DNA of 64,000 nucleotides from Sedimentisphaerales bacterium. Lineage in GTDB: Bacteria; Planctomycetota; Phycisphaerae; Sedimentisphaerales; SM23-30. Positions within the stretch are counted from its first letter, which is position 1; each line of letters opens with the position of its first letter. The stretch covers positions 512,001 through 576,000 of the forward strand of contig CAXXFK010000028.1 in the NCBI GenBank assembly GCA_963663965.2. Direction: 5' to 3'. Below the pieces are notes generated by a model. That model was not told where the DNA came from, searched no databases, and saw only the letters and a program-made list of their open reading frames with translations. Below, piece after piece: positions 39,436-49,100 of the stretch. A program made the translations under genes and the position numbers.

Positions 39436-40890
39436 ATGAAAGAAACACGCTATTTATTGAGGGTATTGTGCCTGATCACTGCGATGGTTGGACTTGCCAG
39501 CGGGGCTGATTCAAGCTTGCGACCTAATTTTGTGTTGATCATTGCTGATGATGTCAGTGTCAATGATATCGGATGTTATGGCCATCCAACCATTCGGACG
39601 CCTCATATCGATCAGCTGGCCCGTGAAGGTGCCCGGTTCGAGCGGGCATTTCTGACGGCCAGTTCGTGCAGCCCGAGCCGTTGCAGTATTATTACCGGGC
39701 GCTATCCGCATAATACCGGCGCACCGGAACTGCATATGCCATTGCCGGAGAACCAGATTCCATTTCCCGCCGTGCTAAAGCAGCAGGGTTATTATACCGC
39801 TCAGGCAGGCAAGTGGCATCTGGGAGAAAATGAGAATGTGACCGGCGCGTTTGACCGGCGCGAAGGCGGCGGGCCTGGCGGTGAGGAAAACTGGCTGGAG
39901 GTGTTACGGCAGCGGGATAAAACCAAGCCCTTTTTTCTATGGCTGGCATCATTTGACGCCCACCGGGGCTGGGATGATAAAAATACCATGAAGTCCTATT
40001 CGCTGGAGGAGATTCAGGTGCCGATCTACCTGGTTGATGACCGGCAGACACGCGCGGACCTGGCGGCTTATTATCGAGAAATTACCCGGTTCGATTATGC
40101 TATTGGTGAGGTTGTTAACGAACTGAAACAGCAGGGGGTATATGAAAATACGGTTATACTGGTAATGGCTGATAATGGCCGGCCTTTCCCGCGGTGTAAG
40201 ACCCGGGTTTATGACAGCGGGATGCAAACGCCGCTGGTGATCAGTTGGCCGGATGGTCTGCAAGACAAAGGCAAACCGCGCGGCGGTCTGGTGAGCAGTA
40301 TCGATCTGGCGCCGACACTGTTGGAACTGGCAGGTATCGAGCCATCCGATAGCTTCCAGGGGGTTTCAATCGCGCCATTGCTGAAAGATGGTCAGGCACG
40401 GGTAAGGAAGTATGTCTTTTCCGAACATAACTGGCATGATTACGAGGCACATGAACGTCAGGTCCGAACGGAACGTTATATGTATATCCGTAATGCCCGG
40501 CCGCAATTGATGAACCAGGGGCCGGCGGATTCGGTGCGGTCGCCGTCGCATGTGGCGTTGCAGTTGGGGCGAGACACGGGCAACCTGACCCGCGCACAGG
40601 GAGATGTGTTTCTGGCTCCGCGGCCGGATGAAGAGCTGTTCGACTGTCAGAATGATCCGGAACAATTGGTTAATCTGGCTGCTGATCCTGCCATGGCTGC
40701 GATTCTGAACCGTTTGCGCCATACACTGGACCAATGGCAAAAGGAGACATGTGATACCATTCCATTGCAGATCACCCCGGATCAGTTTGATCGTGAGACA
40801 GGAAAAAATAATGGTAAGGAATGGCAGCGGGAAACGACTCCGGGTAGTGAGCGACAGGCTGCCGAATGTAATCAAAGTGGTCCAATCTGA
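39436..40890 (+). CDS. Formylglycine-dependent sulfatase (sulfamidase-like)
   Basis: 'PNFVLIIADD', 'CSPSRCSIITGRYPH', 'GKWH', 'ADNGRPFPRCK'. Confidence 0.92.
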   Translation: MKETRYLLRVLCLITAMVGLASGADSSLRPNFVLIIADDVSVNDIGCYGHPTIRTPHIDQLAREGARFERAFLTASSCSPSRCSIITGRYPHNTGAPELHMPLPENQIPFPAVLKQQGYYTAQAGKWHLGENENVTGAFDRREGGGPGGEENWLEVLRQRDKTKPFFLWLASFDAHRGWDDKNTMKSYSLEEIQVPIYLVDDRQTRADLAAYYREITRFDYAIGEVVNELKQQGVYENTVILVMADNGRPFPRCKTRVYDSGMQTPLVISWPDGLQDKGKPRGGLVSSIDLAPTLLELAGIEPSDSFQGVSIAPLLKDGQARVRKYVFSEHNWHDYEAHERQVRTERYMYIRNARPQLMNQGPADSVRSPSHVALQLGRDTGNLTRAQGDVFLAPRPDEELFDCQNDPEQLVNLAADPAMAAILNRLRHTLDQWQKETCDTIPLQITPDQFDRETGKNNGKEWQRETTPGSERQAAECNQSGPI

Positions 40891-40965
40891 TGGTGGCGTG
40901 AACTACAAAATTATTACGGAGTTTGTGAGTAAATTTATAGCTGAACCAATATTAAGGAGTCTCAA

Positions 40966-41199
40966 ATGGCAAAACGCGCGAAGAAGAAACAGCGTGACGT
41001 GGTCAAGAATTATCCCATGAAACAATTTGTTGCCAAGTTGCGTCGACTGGCTGACAGTATCGAAGAGGGCAAGCGGTTTCGCATTCAGGTGGCGGGCGAA
41101 CGGGTGAGTATTCCACCGGACGCAACGATTAATATTGAACATGAACGTGAAGGGGATGCCGAAGAAGTTGAATTCCAGATTGTCTGGAAAAACGGCTGA
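40966..41199 (+). CDS. Small amphi-Trp-domain-like protein
   Basis: 'FVAKLRRLADSIE..FRIQVAGERV..IEHERE..EVEFQIVW'; AAGGAG upstream. Confidence 0.75.
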   Translation: MAKRAKKKQRDVVKNYPMKQFVAKLRRLADSIEEGKRFRIQVAGERVSIPPDATINIEHEREGDAEEVEFQIVWKNG

Positions 41200-41220
41200 C
41201 TTTGATAACCGCTAAACCAT

Positions 41221-41256
41221 AAAAAAGCCCTGTCGTCTGGCAGGGCTTTTGTTTTT
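41221..41256 (+). terminator. Rho-independent terminator (possibly bidirectional)
   Basis: AAAAAAGCCCTG-TCGTCTGG-CAGGGCTTTTGTTTTT. Confidence 0.85.
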
Positions 41257-41280
41257 GAGGGAGTGGAGGAGTTATAAAGA

Positions 41281-42150
41281 TAACAGCCGGATTATCCGCA
41301 GATGGATACAGATAAAAAATAAAAACTGGGTTAAGTTATTGAAATATAAAAAGATATAACGGAATACCCAGGGCGGTCAAGCCGCAACCAAAAGAAGAAA
41401 TAGTTCACACAAAGCCACCAATCCACCAAGATAAACAGCCAGTTAGACAGGATCACAGGATTGACAGGATTTAAGAAATGAGAATTGAGATAAAAATATA
41501 TCAGCCGATTCGACCGCAGATCCCGATGTACATCGGGACAGGTGGACGCAGATATAAAAGTAAAGAAAGATAGAACCACGAAAGGGACGAAATGCACGAA
41601 AGAAGAAAAAAACATTTTACCGTAAGGTAGTGAAGGGAGTGAAGAAATGGCCATTAAGCTGAAAGATTAACAGGCTTTTTTAGACAGGATCATCCCGATC
41701 CCGATGGCTCGGGATTTCGCTTTGCTCAATATCTGGGACTTTCAGCTCATTGACAGGATTTGAGAAAATGGATTTGATATCAAAATATAACAGCCATTTA
41801 ACATGAAGTTATTGAAGGGCATGAAGGGGGGGGGGAGGTGATAAAAAAGAAGATTTCACCACAGAGGAACAGCCGGAGTGGGGGGAAGATGGATGAAAAG
41901 GAATATGAGTTTAAAAGAAGGCAAGGAATATAACAGCCGGATGAACCACTGAGCCGCCTGCGGCTACACGAAGAGCGCCTGCGGCGCTGCACGAAGGTTA
42001 AGAAAAATATAACAGCCTTTTTAGACAGGATCATCCCGAGGGTTATCGGGACTTTCAGCTCATCGACAGGATTTGAGATTAAAGGGAATTGGAATAAGAA
42101 TATAACAGCCGAGTTCACCACGGAAAAACGCGGAAAGACGCGGAAGAAAG
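41281..42150 (+). repeat. Non-coding array of AACAGCC-anchored units with triplicated short motifs
   Basis: AACAGCC at 41282, 41434, 41789, 41868, 41932, 42011, 42104, variants at 41500 and 41669; triplets such as ACAGGAT x3, ACGAAA x3, TGAAG x3, CGGAA x3. Confidence 0.85.
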
Positions 42151-42379
42151 GCAAAAGGCAGGATGCAGGATTGGAAATTAGAAAGGCAGGATTCGTTTGT
42201 GGATTTTTTATTTTTGATGGCAATTGTTGGCTGATGGGGAGTGATGTGTTATGTGTTCAAAGTTTTACGGTGTTATGTTTGATAGTGCCTGGCTGTTGAT
42301 ACTGCTGAAGGAATGTGAATGATGGTGTGGAAGAAAACCTATTTAGATCAGCCCCGAGGTTTCGGGACTTCGCCTAGCT

Positions 42380-42435
42380 CAGCCCGCCTGAGGCGGATCT
42401 TCGACATGGGCAAAACAAGTTTTACCCATCCTACG
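42380..42435 (-). repeat. Left inverted arm containing a GTAG-type REP-like hairpin
   Basis: CAGCCCGCCTGAGGCGGATCTTCGA followed by CATGGGCAAAACAAGTTTTACCCATCCTACG. Confidence 0.75.
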
Positions 42436-42441
42436 TGACTG

Positions 42442-43752
42442 GTGTCTACCTTCGAATACGCGCCCGCCAAACAGCCCTCCGAACGAACCTTCTATTTCTG
42501 CCATACCGACCATCTGGGCTCCTCATCCATTATGAGCGACCGCGCCGGCGCCCTTGTCAATCAATATGGCTACCGGCCCTTCGGCGCCGATTGCTCACCG
42601 GCCTTCTCCGGCCTGACCCTCTCGCAACGCTTCACCGGCCAGAGTTACGATGAAGCCATCGGGCTCTACTACTATCAATCCCGCTATTACGATCCGGCCA
42701 TCGCCCGATTCATCCAGCCTGATACGATTTTACCCTCCTTCGGTTCTCAGGGCATTAACCGCTACAGCTATTGCTACAACAATCCGCTTAAATATACCGA
42801 TCCGAGCGGCCATGGTCCGGAATATGATCAAGCGGTTTCGAATAGTAGTCAGATGTTAAAAATCTATGGCGAAATGATTACAGATTCCGATGCAGGAATT
42901 CAGGCGAATATTGGTGCTTTTTTCCTTTCGATGTATCATGCTGTTACAATGGGGTTTGGTGGCGCAGCTCCTGCCATCCATGAAGGAATGGAAGGCGCCC
43001 GCGAACAGGCTGGTCAAGACTTTACTGGACCCGCTGGTTACGCAGTTCAGGGACTGTTATATGCTGGCGAAGGGTATGCTCGAACGATGGCTTGGGGTAG
43101 CGAAAAGTCTTTAGAAGCAGCCGTATTAGGTGGTCCGATTTCCGGTTTGTCTAAGGTCAGGTATGTAGGTACTGGATTGCAAGTTATTGGTGCAGGTGCA
43201 ACTACAGTTTATACCGGCCATAATATCTATAACCTTTCGACAGATCCAGATTATTGGACGATTGAGAATGTTCTCGATACTGGACTTTCTGGTGCAGGTT
43301 TATTATATTATGGCGATAAATTTGACAAATTTTTAATGAAAAAAGTCATCATTCCGTATAGAAAGGATTTGGCCACTACTTTTATGCGCGATGAGTTGAT
43401 GATACCAGAGGATATGATAGGGGGGTATATGGATGGAATTGACTTTAATCAGAAAGTCAGGATGGTAGAATTTGTAGGAGACGAACTTTTGGTGCAGTAT
43501 GTCAAAGAGTACGGTTTAGGCAGAGTAGGACGATTTTTTGCCTATCCAGGGACTTCACCAGACGAACTTGGAATAGCGCCTTATTTCCGCCGCATTCGTC
43601 AATTTAATCCTACACCCGGCACTAGAGCGTTGCAATCAACCGCCGCCCCGATAATTGATAAATGGTCTGTAAGGCCTTTTGAGTTTTCAACTCAAGGTGG
43701 CGGCACACAGATTATGAGTAATCCCAATTATTTCGAAATCATTCAGAACTAA
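42442..43752 (+). CDS. Orphan Rhs core remnant with C-terminal polymorphic toxin (Ntox46-like)
   Basis: 'HTDHLGS', 'RFTGQ', 'LYYYQSRYYDP..RFIQPD', 'NRYSYCYNNPLKYTDPSG'; tip 'GIDF..VQY..G.FF..PGT..LGI..LQSTAAP..D.WS..GGGTQ'. Confidence 0.85.
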   Translation: MSTFEYAPAKQPSERTFYFCHTDHLGSSSIMSDRAGALVNQYGYRPFGADCSPAFSGLTLSQRFTGQSYDEAIGLYYYQSRYYDPAIARFIQPDTILPSFGSQGINRYSYCYNNPLKYTDPSGHGPEYDQAVSNSSQMLKIYGEMITDSDAGIQANIGAFFLSMYHAVTMGFGGAAPAIHEGMEGAREQAGQDFTGPAGYAVQGLLYAGEGYARTMAWGSEKSLEAAVLGGPISGLSKVRYVGTGLQVIGAGATTVYTGHNIYNLSTDPDYWTIENVLDTGLSGAGLLYYGDKFDKFLMKKVIIPYRKDLATTFMRDELMIPEDMIGGYMDGIDFNQKVRMVEFVGDELLVQYVKEYGLGRVGRFFAYPGTSPDELGIAPYFRRIRQFNPTPGTRALQSTAAPIIDKWSVRPFEFSTQGGGTQIMSNPNYFEIIQN

Positions 43753-43764
43753 AAGGCTTGCGTT

Positions 43765-44100
43765 ATGGAACGAATCGAAATACTTAAAAATGCCCTTGCA
43801 GTATGGAATGAGTATGTTTCTTGCAGTCCAAAATTTTATCCATGGATTTCTAGAGATATATCATTCTTGATTGAAGTGGAACAAAGGCGTCTTAACGGTG
43901 AAAAGTCTTTGCAAAATGAAGAGGATGTGGAAAATTTGCTTGATTTAACTGGCCGTTCAAATCGACTCGGTCCATTTTCCGGAATAGCCGTTCATGATAT
44001 ATCAGATAATAATGTGTGTAGTTGTTTGATTGCTGTCCAGAATATCGTTCGAGAGATGGCGACTGATTTTAATCTAAACTATAATATTTTAGATGAATAA
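43765..44100 (+). CDS. Putative cognate immunity protein
   Basis: 111-aa acidic, AT-rich ORF 12 nt downstream of the toxin; assignment is by position only. Confidence 0.65.
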   Translation: MERIEILKNALAVWNEYVSCSPKFYPWISRDISFLIEVEQRRLNGEKSLQNEEDVENLLDLTGRSNRLGPFSGIAVHDISDNNVCSCLIAVQNIVREMATDFNLNYNILDE

Positions 44101-44133
44101 AAACTCAAGTTCCGTAGCCCGGGCATTTCTCGT

Positions 44134-44213
44134 CGTAGGATGAGGCAAATCTGTGATTTGCCCATGCCGCAGGTTCGCTTTAGGAGAATCGAAGATCCGC
44201 CTCAGGAGGGCTG
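44134..44213 (+). repeat. Right inverted arm containing a GTAG-type REP-like hairpin
   Basis: CGTAGGATGAGGCAAATCTGTGATTTGCCCATG ... TCGAAGATCCGCCTCAGGAGGGCTG; reverse complement of the left arm. Confidence 0.75.
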
Positions 44214-44296
44214 TTGATTATTGGCGTTTGTGCTGTGAATATGAAGGATGAGCAAGAAAGCATATTTGATTATTGCGGACTTGTTGAAAATTAAAA

Positions 44297-45044
44297 GGGT
44301 CAGGAACCTTTTTAGGTTGACATTACGCTGATATTGCGCCAGAATAGGCGGATCATGCCACGCTCTAAACGAAAAAGTTATGGCGGTTATCTTTACCATG
44401 TGCTCAACCGGGCAAATGGTCGGCTGCGTATATTTCGCAAGGCCGCCGATTTTGCGGCGTTTGAGGCCATCCTTGGCCAGGGCCAGGAGCGGACGGGAAT
44501 GCGGATCTGCGGGTATTGCCTGATGGGCAATCACTGGCATCTGCTGTTGTGGCCGCGGCATGACGGCGAGTTGTCGGAATATATGCGATGGGTGACGGTC
44601 ACGCACACGCAGCGGTATCACGCCGCCCGCCGCAGCGCCGGTACGGGCCATATTTATCAGGGGCGATTCAAGAGCTTTCCCATTCAGGGTCAGATTTATT
44701 ATGTGACGGCGCTGCGATATGTCGAAGCCAACCCCTTGCGGGCCGGACTGGTGACGGATGCGGCGGATTGGCCCTGGAGCAGCTATGGCCAGCATGTGGG
44801 CTGCGCCGGCCGGGATACGCCGATTACCCTGAGCGAGTATAGCACGCCGCTGCCGGAAAACTGGGATCAACTGGTACATGCCAATCTAAGCGAGAAGGAT
44901 TGCGAGCGTTTTCAAAACGCGATCCGGCGGGGCTGTCCGCTGGGGGATACGGACTGGTCAGAAAAGATCGCCGCCCAATTCGAATTAGAGTCAACACTCC
45001 GGCCCAGAGGAAGACCGAAGATCGACTTAAAAGGTTCCTGACCC
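44297..45044 (+). mobile_element. HUH Y1 transposase unit bounded by a perfect 16-bp inverted repeat
   Basis: GGGTCAGGAACCTTTT (44297-44312) and AAAAGGTTCCTGACCC (45029-45044). Confidence 0.75.
44355..45041 (+). CDS. REP-associated tyrosine transposase (RAYT-like, Y1_Tnp HUH)
   Basis: 'MPR..R..YHVLNRAN', HUH 'YCLMGNHWHLL', 'QGRFKS', catalytic Tyr 'RYVEANPLRAGLV..WPWSS', 'RGRP'. Confidence 0.9.
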   Translation: MPRSKRKSYGGYLYHVLNRANGRLRIFRKAADFAAFEAILGQGQERTGMRICGYCLMGNHWHLLLWPRHDGELSEYMRWVTVTHTQRYHAARRSAGTGHIYQGRFKSFPIQGQIYYVTALRYVEANPLRAGLVTDAADWPWSSYGQHVGCAGRDTPITLSEYSTPLPENWDQLVHANLSEKDCERFQNAIRRGCPLGDTDWSEKIAAQFELESTLRPRGRPKIDLKGS

Positions 45045-45129
45045 CTTAAAATCCGACTATCTAGCATAAGTAGTAAATTAAGAAGAAGGAACTATACTTC
45101 ATAAGCATTATGCCTAAAAATAGGCATCA

Positions 45130-45380
45130 GGGACAATCTGAAGCTGGATTCGGTGGGGCTGGCGGCGGATGTGGGCGCGATATTTGTACCGGTAGCGCCC
45201 GGCGGCGTGACTCTGTTTGGCCGGACGGTGAAAGTTTCGGCTAGAACGCTGCGCTATGCCAATCTCGGGATAAAGACCGTTCGTTATGCCGACAATGCCG
45301 TCAATCTGGCCCAGGCCGGTATCGGGGTGGAAGCCTATATGGACGGAGGAGCGGGTGCGGCTGGCGGCCGGTTCGATTAA
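45130..45380 (+). pseudogene. Probable fragment of a second Rhs pre-toxin region
   Basis: 'DSVGLAADVGAIFVPVAPGG' resembles Gly/Ala-rich segments that follow Rhs cores; no proper start, truncated. Confidence 0.4.
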
Positions 45381-45389
45381 AATAGTGTC

Positions 45390-45473
45390 GTCCCTGCGGG
45401 ACTTGTTGGAATGGGGGGATTGGGGATCCCGCAGTTGAAACTGCGGGCTATGAACTTATGTCCCTGGCGGGAC
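45390..45473. repeat. REP-like tripartite palindrome cluster
   Basis: GTCCCTGCGGGAC, CCCGCAGTTGAAACTGCGGG, GTCCCTGGCGGGAC. Confidence 0.65.
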
Positions 45474-45503
45474 TTTTATTGAAACCAATACATTGATTTT
45501 TGC

Positions 45504-45707
45504 TTGAGAGTGGTGAATTGGGATATCAGAGCGGATTTTGATAAGGAGCGGCGGGCGATGGAGAAGATCTGGAAGAGCCGGGAGAAACAGATCGAGACGG
45601 TGCTGGGGAACCTGGGCGGGATTGAAGGGGCGCTGCAGGGGTATTTGGGTACGAAGGCGCTGGGTGAAGGTGGGATTGCGATATTGGAGGGGATGGGAGA
45701 GGAATGA
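45504..45707 (+). pseudogene. C-terminal fragment of a DUF2130-like protein
   Basis: 'DFDKERRAMEKIWKSREKQIETVL..G.LQG..G' recalls the DUF2130 C-terminus; 5' part missing. Confidence 0.55.
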
Positions 45708-45725
45708 TCGGGAGGGTATGATAAC

Positions 45726-45751
45726 GGGCAATCACGGGGGATTGCCCCTAC
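45726..45751 (-). repeat. GTAG-type REP-like hairpin
   Basis: GGGCAATC-ACGGGG-GATTGCCC-CTAC. Confidence 0.65.
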
Positions 45752-45916
45752 AAAGGCTGGGCCGGCCGGTTATATTTCATTGTGAGTGGGGATAAAATCC
45801 ATTTTGTCGGGTAGTCTGGGATTTTATTGTCCAATTTCTGGTCGATAACAGAGTTATTAAGATAGATATAGTATAGAGGGGGGAAAGCGATTTCTTTTAA
45901 TTATATGGACTATCTT

Positions 45917-46016
45917 AGGGCGGTCAAGCCGCTAGCAAAGAAGAAATAGTTCACACAAAGACGCTAAGCCACAAAGATAAACAGCCGGTTTAACGCAAAG
46001 TCGCTGAGTCGCAAAG
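45917..46016 (+). repeat. Second copy of the 41370-41440 repeat plus a CGCAAAG-type triplet unit
   Basis: AGGGCGGTCAAGCCGC..AAAGAAGAAATAGTTCACACAAAG..CCAC.AAGATAAACAGCC shared with 41370-41440. Confidence 0.85.
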
Positions 46017-46173
46017 GGTGGGTAACCACCGGCAGCGTCAAAAGTTGACGTAAAGCGCTAAGCGATACAAGTTGTTGATTTGAAATAACCTATTGATACT
46101 GATGCGAAATAAACTAGCTAAGAACACAAAGAAATTATGGATTGTAGTACAAATAGCAAAGGTTTATGATCAA

Positions 46174-49100
46174 ATGAGAAAAACTGTGTTGGTGATCTGT
46201 TTAATGGGAAGTCTGATGATAAATGGCTTGTGGGGGGCCATTACTTATATTGACGCGGAACTGGGGAATACGACGGTTGATGGCGAGGCGCTGGCGGCGG
46301 GAGTCAATTATTCAACCAGTTATTCCACGCTGGAAGGGTTGTGGGGGTGGCGGACCAATCGGACGGATGTCAATGGCGGTGGGATCTGGGTAACGGATGG
46401 CGGGGCAGGCAGCGGGGAGGTGGATCGGGAAGAGACCGCGCCGCTGAAGATTGATATTACGCTGCCGGAAACAGGGGTTTATGATCTGTATGCGGTCATC
46501 ATGAATAATAACGGCGGCAGCGGGCATTGGGATGTCGGGGCGCGGATTGGCGAAACCGGATTTTTTACGACGTTTAACAAATATTCTGAGGAAATGACTC
46601 AGGCGGTGGCGTCGGATTTTGTGGGGAGCGTGAAAGTCTCGGGCAGTGGCGATGTGACCTTTAAGGTCAGGATTGGTCAATATACCGCCAGGGCCGCCAA
46701 TGAGAGTGTGAGCATCTATATTAATGGGCTGGATGGCTGGGATGGCCAGAGCGGGTTGGATCAGAGGACGCGTTTTGATGGGATTGGCTATGAAAAGGTG
46801 GCGGGCCTGATGCCCTGGGCGGTTAATGCGGGGCCGGTTGATGGTGATGAGAATGTGTTGGGAATCGATACGGTGTTGCGATGGCTGGCCGGGGAGGGGG
46901 CGTTGGGGCATAATGTTTATCTGGGGATGGATCGGGAGGCGGTGGCGTTTCGCAGTGACCTGGATGGGAGTCGAGAGGTTGATTGCGCGGATATGGCGAT
47001 GCTTGGGGTTGACTGGCAGAAAGAGGCGGGCGAGGTTATGGGAGGTGGGGCGGATATCGATGGATCGGGCGTGATCGATATGGGTGATCTGGCATGGGTG
47101 GCGGATGACTGGCTGGTGCGTGATGAAAGCAGTTTTGTGGGCGGTTTTTCCGCGGGAACGCCGGCGTATGATGCCGGGAAGCTTTTGCCGGATACAACCT
47201 ATTACTGGCGGATTGACGAGGTGGGTGAGCAGGCGGTTGCCAAGGGGGATGTCTGGGCATTCAAGACCTTCAAGGCGGATGGATTGACGGCCCGTATTTA
47301 TGACACGATCGATTTCAGCGAATTGAAGGTCACCCGGATCGATGGGCAGGTGAGTTTTGACTGGGGGGCGGGATCACCGGATCCTGCTGTGGGTGTGGAT
47401 ACCTTTTCCATTGCCTGGGAAGGCGGAATTATGGTACCGGAAAAAGGTGAGTATACGTTCTATGCCGGTTCCGATGATGGGACCCGCCTGTATGTGAATG
47501 ATATTCTGATTATTGACCAGTGGACCGATCATGGCTTGGTGGAAGCCAGTGGAGCGATCAAACTGCGGCCGGGAACGGTGTATCCTATCCGGCTGGAATA
47601 CTATGAGAATGCGGGATCGGCCGCGGTTTATCTGTTATGGTCGGGGCCGGGGATCAACAAACAGGTGATTCCCCGCGATTATCTTGCCTCATCGGTGACT
47701 GTGCCGCTGCCAGAGGATATCTGGGTGGTCGATCTGAACTCGATTCCAATGGAGATGCGGCTTTTGACGCTGACCCTGGAGGGACTGGTCGCCAAAGAGC
47801 AAGCGGCGATACTGGTGAAACAGGGAGGGCTGACTTCGTTGATCCGGGCGGATATGGAAGCGGAAGGGACGGTCTTTCATGATAATGCGTCGGTCTGGTG
47901 GCTGTTGAATAAATTCAGCGATTATATTGATGGACTGATTGTCTGCGGTTCGGATATGGCGAGTATTAACGCGGCGACTTCGCTGTGTGGACCGATGAAC
48001 GCGGTGGCCGTGGATGAGTCCATTTTAAGCCAGGTGCAGGGTCGGACGGGGTTGCCGGTACTGGCGGATATGAGAGGGATGGATGCCGCAACGGTTTATG
48101 GCAGCTATCAGGAACTGTTTGGGCATGAAATGGTTGTTGATGTGAACAAGGTGGATTTCCTGCGGGATATTGGCGTTACCCGTAATGCCATGACGTTCTA
48201 TCAAGTTGACTCGGCGACCCGGAAGCGAATTATTGGCGGATTGACCTCCCAGGGGATTGTGATGGGGTGGGGTAGTAACGCAGAGTATGGGTGGATAAAA
48301 GATCTCAGCCAGGTGAATGCCGGCGGGGTGCCGTCTGACTGGTCGAAAAATCTGTCGACGCTGTCGAAGCTTCCGGTGACTATTCCCAAGCCGCCGCGGA
48401 AGTATCCGGCTCCTGTGCAGGCGGGGGAACGCATTGTGGCCTTTTCCATGAGTGATGGGGATAATCTGCAGATTATGGCGGGGGATTATATTGTTAATGC
48501 CAAATATTTTGGGCATCCGGCGCGCGGGACCTTTCCTTTGTCGTGGGAATTTCCGCCGATGATGGGCGAGTTGATTCCCCGCGGGGTGCAATGTTACTAT
48601 AATGAGGCCAGCCGGGGTGAGAATCCTGATTGCTTTATTGCCGGGCCCAGTGGGGTTGGGTACGCGTTTCAACATTACTTGCCGAATCGCCGGGATTTTG
48701 CGACCCATACGGGGCAGGCGATGAAACGATGCGGGTTGACGGTGACGACCATGCTGAATGAAAATGATGTTTCGATGTCGAGCGCGTATGAATTGCTTGA
48801 CCGGCCGGAAGTTCTGGGTATTGTTTATAAGGATTGGGCTCCTTATAACCGTCGGCACGGCCAGATCTATTGGCACAATGGCAAGCCGTGTGTTTCCTAC
48901 AAATATTTGCTATGGGGTACTGACGCGGGAGATTCTGATAATCTGGGAGATTGGGAAACGGTATCAGCCGGTATTGCAGCCATGCCGGCGTCGCCGGCGA
49001 CGGACATGGGCAGTTACGCCCTGATTAACGCGCATGCCTGGTCGTTTGGGGAGGTTGGCGGGCCGATGCAGGCCATTATCAATACCATCGAGCTTTTACC

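Follow-up and report, generated by a model that had tools for sequence, protein, structure and literature searches.

Long intergenic arrays of short repeats have been described as NIMEs, dynamic structures composed of dRS3 and RS elements for which growth by recurring recombination has been proposed; according to that account, NIMEs were not seen outside Neisseria (PMC1797815). Among REP, BIME and REPIN sequences each type of RAYT (TnpA-REP) enzyme has its own repeat type, of which numerous copies stand without a gene, and IS200/IS605 elements are oriented on the lagging-strand template (PMC6006769); an orientation bias of IS elements has also been reported (PMC3971601). The GxxExxY proteins (TIGR04256; PF13366, PDDEXK_3) are listed with the function 'Unknown' (PMC3424549), and a paper examined for the term GxxExxY mentions it in passing. 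Here we describe a repeat array at positions 41278–42150 (+ strand) of a 64,000-nucleotide stretch of DNA from a Sedimentisphaerales bacterium (the window). It is a real, previously undescribed variant of mosaic repeat arrays, and what is new is that only forward arms are stacked and that the arrays are strand-polarised, a polarity that hints at an unusual mode of chromosome copying. No description of such arrays, of the pairing of genes with arms, or of such skew in this lineage was found in the literature searched, which consisted mainly of open papers. In its gene content the host resembles a sulfatase-rich planctomycete of the class Phycisphaerae.

The array lies between the terminator of an Amphi-Trp gene (40966–41199), an intrinsic terminator-like hairpin at 41223–41250 (+) that forms its left border, and an orphan Rhs-core/Ntox46 cassette. 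Its phased motif units number about twelve, fall into eight classes and all lie on the + strand. The original prediction had proposed about nine co-oriented anchors, mostly of one exact sequence and mostly followed by a triplicated motif. Nine anchor-like words are indeed present, all on the + strand and spaced 64–169 nt apart (41282, 41434, 41500 (ATCAGCC), 41669 (AACAGGC), 41789, 41868, 41932, 42011 and 42104), of which just four read ATATAACAGCC exactly when inspected by eye. The triplets that it cited are also in place, namely ACAGGAT at 41447, 41455 and 41464, TGAAG at 41804–41826, CGGAA at 42121–42145 and ACGAAA, without an anchor, at 41578–41601. Several other 'triplets' proved to be doublets or to be split by hairpin inserts (41522–41538, 41694–41729, 41956–41985 and 42035–42051), and several units that are partial or lack an anchor had been overlooked (a CAAAG class at 41408–41430, TGAAG at 41622–41644, a CGGAA remnant at 41359 and a CAGAG remnant at 41860).

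Read from left to right on the + strand, the array starts with an anchor, a CAGAT doublet, a linker and the CGGAA remnant (41278–41364). There follow, at 41369–41470, a hairpin (41373–41385), the CAAAG-class triplet, the anchor at 41434 and the CAGGAT triplet (41447–41470); at 41492–41553, an anchor variant and a CAGAT unit with a CCCGA..TCGGG hairpin inserted at 41522–41538; and at 41577–41644, the anchor-less CGAAA triplet (41577–41601) and the TGAAG-class triplet. The unit at 41661–41759 has an anchor variant and CAGGAT repeats, with nested hairpin inserts in place of the middle repeat. It is succeeded by an anchor with a TGAAG triplet (41803–41826), a poly-G run, the CAGAG remnant (41860–41866) and the anchor at 41868 (together 41780–41874); by an anchored CGAAG unit with two small hairpins (41947–41996) and an anchored CAGGAT unit with a hairpin insert (42025–42072), which together span 41928–42072; and by an anchor, a CGGAA triplet (42120–42145) and a G/T-rich tail (42096–42354). 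Two minus-strand ORFs of 107 and 141 aa overlap the array; they are of low complexity and were judged spurious by eye.

To the right of the array, the cassette at 42380–44213 consists of the orphan Rhs-core and Ntox46 toxin gene (42442–43752) and a likely immunity gene (43765–44100), enclosed by REP-like inverted arms (42380–42435 and 44134–44213; 25 nt at 96%). Further on, at 45428–45474, the window carries an Acido-Lenti-1-like repeat that scores 30.9 bits, under the gathering score of 37; such motifs are split 6:0 in favour of the G-rich strand.

A BLAST search of the window array against its own genome (G000, whose contigs are designated C and a number) returned 240 rows, and class-specific patterns identified 33 arrays of 3–10 units, with 174 units in total, each array on one strand. 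The genome-wide recurrence of the eight motif classes was thereby established; one shuffled genome gave no cluster of at least three units. The window array ties for the longest of the 33. It has a block of about 500 bp (41749–42253, +) in common with the array at C10:244381–244925, at 82% identity and with unit order kept, and the inserted hairpins differ; the C10 paralogue of the unit at 41661–41759 aligns as a plain CAGGAT triplet. More generally, arrays have blocks in common that are arranged in different orders, and 30 of the 33 have distinct unit orders. Neighbouring units are of the same class in only 3 of 141 pairs, compared with 20.5 after shuffling, and the commonest module is CAGAT followed by CGGAA (21/141). 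These counts come from arrays that are not independent, since there are duplicated blocks on C11/C30 and C25/C40, and from a bin that is 5.4% contaminated. No neighbouring gene was common to the arrays among 86 scanned of the 139 ORFs beside 20 of them. Of 301 genomes of the class, 56 have stacked arms, and when genome contigs were searched for two stacked classes, 13 loci spread over several phyla came up. One arm pattern matches an Opitutales MAG (G031, the genome of L101) 443 times, far above the other genomes searched with it; the skew of this MAG is weak. A Cas9 gene (L017:5630–8800) lies about 0.8 kb past a nine-unit array (C33:82484–83307), probably by coincidence.

The repeats within a unit have a pitch of 8–10 nt, and their cores contain 25% C against 14% in the linkers. 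Cores are more highly conserved than linkers (0.92 vs 0.76; 0.87 vs 0.65) among copies that were gathered by their cores, which suggests constraint on these sequences. The folding score of the RNA was z = -2.6, and the five Rfam matches within 40800–46200 were all below cut-off.

The motif classes of the window triplets are the arms that bracket GxxExxY (PD-(D/E)XK) nuclease genes, a link that the original prediction had suggested. G000 has five such genes: two are bracketed by direct, anchored CGGAA units on both sides, one has direct TGAAG units, one has classical inverted arms and one has an inverted pair upstream. Two pieces of the window correspond to the flanks of one of them, the gene at C28:607951: 41862–41938 (+) to the upstream flank (90% identity) and 42096–42354 to the downstream flank (85%). 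In relatives the same arm classes, others than CGGAA among them, flank GxxExxY genes, mostly as inverted pairs. A scored arm is present in 29 of 35 GxxExxY rows, and on a protein tree of these rows (two duplicates among them) arm class clusters, with 17 changes against 24.4 when shuffled and none of 200 shuffles as low. The tree has a 100/99 split between proteins with G-ending and those with T/A-ending cores, the single exception being a fragment. That arm class tracks protein clade offers a testable specificity code for a large nuclease family.

A CAGGAT arm at C25:96248, and in its C40 duplicate, is followed by what translates by eye as a GxxExxY N-terminal stub. L099 contains a nested, two-sided palindrome of three classes, and partial palindromes of this kind occur in L094, L096 and L098; the L099 structure is a plausible two-sided ancestor of the stacks. 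At C25:96248–99296, C40:105662–107284 and C22:75721–77732, single arms come between small genes whose products resemble membrane proteins or lipoproteins, roughly one every 0.5–0.8 kb, in a manner resembling cassette arrays, the C25 and C40 blocks being duplicates. A four-helix-bundle (23S rRNA IVP) gene at C42:224568–224888 lies between inverted GCAAAAT-type repeats, forward copies of which are also found in arrays of G000 and of the relative G004.

Of 160 ends of alignments between arrays, 76 fall at a third repeat (9.6% expected); of 161 starts, 33 fall at an anchor (11.5% expected), a 1.8-fold enrichment. In the window, position 41470, the end of the CAGGAT triplet, is the terminus of 25 alignments, and across a CAGGAT triplet one and the same upstream flank is joined to several families of tails. 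Because alignment ends pile up at the third repeat and these swaps of flank and tail cross the triplet, crossovers appear to lie in the triplets.

The orientation of the arrays follows strand composition. With skew measured over ±40 kb, 32 of 33 arrays lie on the G-rich strand, and so do 29 of 31 pairs and 54 of 61 single units; of genes, only 435 of 747 favour that strand, and array orientation agrees with the upstream gene in only 17 and with the downstream gene in only 21 of 33 cases. Since orientation follows strand skew and not neighbouring genes, a transcript-based role for most arrays is argued against. Exact intergenic motifs are split between the strands 26:0, 30:1, 14:0 and 29:1, despite their C-rich cores, and array density climbs about eight times, from 0.09 to 0.76 per 20 kb, with rising third-position |skew|. 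A single array of the 33, at C10:78003–78333, stands against the regional skew. We also considered that mirror halves might be hidden downstream of the arrays; reverse arms are depleted there (20 vs 54 background), and the idea was rejected. In other genomes, one-sided arms follow flank skew in 6 of 7 cases (G001) and 5 of 6 (G017), and polarity is weak in G031 (11/16), G011 (1/3) and a class-wide sample (10/16). Neutral copying alone does not account for the constant placing of the forward arm on the G-rich strand.

The complete relative G004 (one 4.59-Mb contig) has the same one-sided, mixed arrays. By hand count 70 of 80 arms follow the skew of the surrounding ±1.5 kb, a measure that takes in the G-rich linkers themselves, and eight of the ten exceptions stand in inverted pairs or bracket a gene. 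The stacks, which are anchor-less, radiate from skew jumps. At nine sites (G004:C1 209768, 713747, 1617186, 1928261, 2270076, 2881590, 3818337, 4120014 and 4293782) there is a palindrome-rich head motif with three TGTACA-type palindromes, pointing outward. All nine heads are at upward skew jumps and none is at a sharp downward flip, with the skew flipping 0.5–3 kb behind the head. Six of these sites were at switches already seen; the other three were predicted, and proved to be two clear switches and one upward step. Neither dnaA gene of G004 (331.7 kb and 3997 kb) is at a head site. The head motif is a candidate initiation or initiator-binding site. As an origin conserved in the family it was rejected, being present in 1 of 31 genomes and at chance level in the congener G287 (6 matches vs 5 in the control). 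G287 itself has an ordinary two-replichore skew (20 samples) and largely paired or alternating arms, and G025 combines weak skew with many paired arms. A genome-wide linear sawtooth in G004 was also rejected: 138 bins gave rho = -0.74, but most of these had been chosen near arms or heads, and 17 unbiased gap-filling loci gave rho = -0.24 (permutation p = 0.18). Skew sampling with a G-rich probe motif comprised 21 points. Local jumps with a reach of roughly 50–300 kb, on a weak two-replichore background, fit G004 better.

In G000 itself there are 17 divergent and 9 convergent skew switches at thresholds that we set, 11 of the divergent ones with a contrast of at least 0.16, and neither dnaA gene (C22:55.5 kb and C17:22.5 kb) is at a listed switch. 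The strongest association with the switches is that of a 279-aa orphan gene, P0001 (for example L132:8138–8974, C12:80137–80976), present in 26 intact copies that are 89–96% identical. Judged by its variants (188 synonymous vs 70 non-synonymous), P0001 is under purifying selection. Its sense strand is C-rich, 6 of 21 scorable copies are at divergent switches against a background of 4%, and the 5–10 kb upstream are C-rich in 20 of 24 cases. The gene has a near-consensus promoter and a leader that is a mosaic of hairpin half-sites, and a short hairpin lies downstream. The family is very large, with 22,977 representatives, and has no name, nor do the Atlas matches carry one; P0001 gave no Pfam, PHROG or NCBIfam match and no PDB sequence match at E<0.1, and its predicted structure is all-helical, with no Foldseek match and just generic coiled-coil matches at Z<8. 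A terminase-small-subunit match in 1 of 89 P0001 relatives is weak (E=0.006) and serves as a lead only. As a universal cause of skew P0001 was rejected, as it was found in 8 of 31 genomes and, with this query, not in G004.

Judged from these sequence comparisons, our preferred reading, to which we give about an even chance (roughly 0.5), is that the arrays consist of relic forward arms and that these were spread by directional, fork-linked copying which set out from many local initiation sites. The window array itself is a composite in which forward ('left') arms of several GxxExxY-nuclease repeat elements are stacked, some of them carrying inserted small hairpin elements. Modules may have spread by ectopic recombination or template switching, with the triplet as the junction; if this copying took place at a moving replication fork, the copies would for that reason inherit its strand polarity. 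We infer that palindromic, two-armed ancestors would lose or flip the fork-distal arm wherever one fork direction dominates. The direction would be set by DNA synthesis from many local sites, visible as skew jumps, and not by oriC alone, and the array, as a record of fork direction, would be for the most part selfish or a by-product. Skew serves only as a proxy for fork direction, and polarity changes can also stem from gene transfer or rearrangement (PMC3269012).

A possible, though not favoured, alternative is that the arms are polar functional sites: the phased triplets would be bound by GxxExxY proteins that differ in specificity and that nick one strand or load machinery on it, prime directional synthesis and so help to cause the skew. 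The 8–10-nt pitch would place the repeats on one helix face, classes are collected rather than repeated, and cores keep their C. Third-position skew is, moreover, somewhat higher downstream of arrays (0.26, 0.22, 0.19) than upstream (0.20, 0.15, 0.16), with symmetric controls. This step is small, however, and in G004 the skew flips behind the head motif and not at each array. GxxExxY genes are found in 27 of 31 genomes searched (G000 counted), including the weak-skew G025, and the order bias may come from a few founder blocks.

A wider form of this idea is that some of these bacteria replicate, at least for part of the time, from many DnaA-independent sites carried on spreading repeats (the nine G004 heads; the 26-copy gene of G000), and that synthesis is directed outward from these by the stacked arms, at which one strand would be nicked or machinery loaded in a polar manner. 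We put this forward tentatively. If true, the chromosome of such a bacterium would have several origins by nature, and the sequences of candidate origins would already be in hand. Natural multi-site replication of one bacterial chromosome is an open question, and earlier claims of it rested on skew plots alone (PMC3269012). Here, the G004 jumps share one short motif away from dnaA, and the congener G287 has neither motif nor jumps. Were the jumps instead due to run-off replication or break repair, they would still reflect an undescribed force that reshapes base composition within a genus. A list of aberrant-skew genomes (10.1101/808410, Table S7) could bear on the skew claim.

We regard as unlikely a regulatory role for the arrays, as combinatorial operator or decoy sites before promoters or as templates for small RNAs. 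The near-consensus sigma-70 promoter module seen at P0001 occurs at 47 sites; an array or unit pair lies at most 1.5 kb behind 13 of these, in 11 cases at exactly 73 bp and with the module pointing the other way. The window array, though, lacks a promoter of this kind, and orientation is independent of gene direction. The RNA folding score speaks for such a role but probably reflects the inserted hairpins, and no Rfam family reached cut-off.

It had further been proposed that mini-elements insert serially at a defined target. This reading, with AACAGCC as the target and insertion in the way of integron cassettes, we now hold to be very unlikely. An extended anchor, AATATAACAGCC, does stand out from base composition, with 40 genome copies against 2.5 expected from an order-5 Markov model (16-fold), alignment starts are enriched at anchors, and at C25 and C40 single units are interspersed with some of the genes. 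The bare AACAGCC is not enriched (1389 copies vs 1449 expected), and the inverted 7-mers at 42291 and 44209 that had been drawn into the original prediction therefore mean little alone; the paralogous tail at C28:608349 has not kept the 42291 copy. Against serial insertion, AACAGCC precedes just 69 of 174 array units, it varies (AACGGCC, AAAAGCT) or is absent, the G004 arrays examined have other linkers and no AACAGCC anchor, junctions map to the triplets, and no tyrosine integrase was seen among the 86 ORFs scanned of 139 beside 20 arrays. AACAGCC is no more than a local linker, and on our preferred reading a lineage-specific one that is carried along.

Public contigs match 40300–41409, 41449–41706 and 41975–42518 without other letters, and a second sample covers 41648–41798; one contig has one G fewer at 41826. 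The array is in this way matched for the most part in pieces, none of those listed spanning it, and the sequencing runs behind them may be those of the source sample. The joints of the contigs match paralogous arrays and are uninformative on strain variation. No orthologous locus, empty or filled, was found in 30 relatives, G000 being the sole member of its genus there; the paralogous arrays inside G000 differ in unit order and inserts. That collapsed or mis-joined repeats make both the arrays and the skew flips is highly improbable: repeats do break assemblies, duplicated blocks exist and no contig spans the window array, but most of it is matched letter for letter, and mis-joins or inversions would give upward and downward flips whereas the G004 heads mark upward ones only.

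Of the known systems, CRISPR can be set aside, as had been predicted. The repeat families are only 61–83% alike with spacings of 64–430 nt, the window array lacks near-identical repeats of 23–50 nt with unique spacers of constant length, the best CRISPR match (E=0.97) is below cut-off, and there is no Cas protein among the seven neighbouring proteins scanned. Nor are there palindromic attC sites as in integrons, the units being non-palindromic direct triplets. NIMEs are alike in joining short constant motifs, variable spacers and opportunistic inserts. They differ in that dRS3 is one 20-bp inverted repeat, and no such repeats enclosing RS elements were found in the window array, which has eight non-palindromic classes that are direct, skew-oriented and each the arm of a nuclease clade. 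In REP/RAYT systems, too, one small nuclease gene stands between copies of its own kind of repeat, and copies without a gene are numerous. Here, by contrast, the arms are phased triplets without a hairpin and guide tetranucleotide, only the nested inserts being hairpins, and the partner is a PD-(D/E)XK and not an HUH Y1 enzyme; BIME units, moreover, are inverted pairs. REP-like hairpins are nested in the arrays, and a RAYT gene lies 2.2 kb from the window array. This RAYT-like Y1 transposase (44291–45050; gene 44355–45041; NF047646 below cut-off) has its own 25-nt inverted repeats and is not flanked by units of the window array. It has at least four near-identical copies in the genome, with arrays inside or after broken copies at C30:158–162 kb and on C11.

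Skew N-domains are known from mammalian genomes. Multi-origin skew patterns are found in archaea and yeast and have been proposed for a few bacteria (PMC3269012), and run-off replication is described in Bartonella (PMC2697382). With all of these our genomes share upward G-over-C jumps that lie away from dnaA and fade with distance; they differ in that each G004 jump, known from sequence alone, is marked by one conserved non-coding motif and those of G000 partly by the 26-copy orphan gene. As in replication-oriented mobile DNA, orientation would be set by replication and not by transcription, yet here there is no transposase gene, there are no defined ends, and the skew is local and of many domains instead of two replichores. 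The closest likeness in motif classes is to the flanks of GxxExxY genes, which have the same phased repeats; in relatives these gene-linked arms are usually inverted pairs, whereas the window array is gene-less and its arms are one-sided, mixed and polarised.
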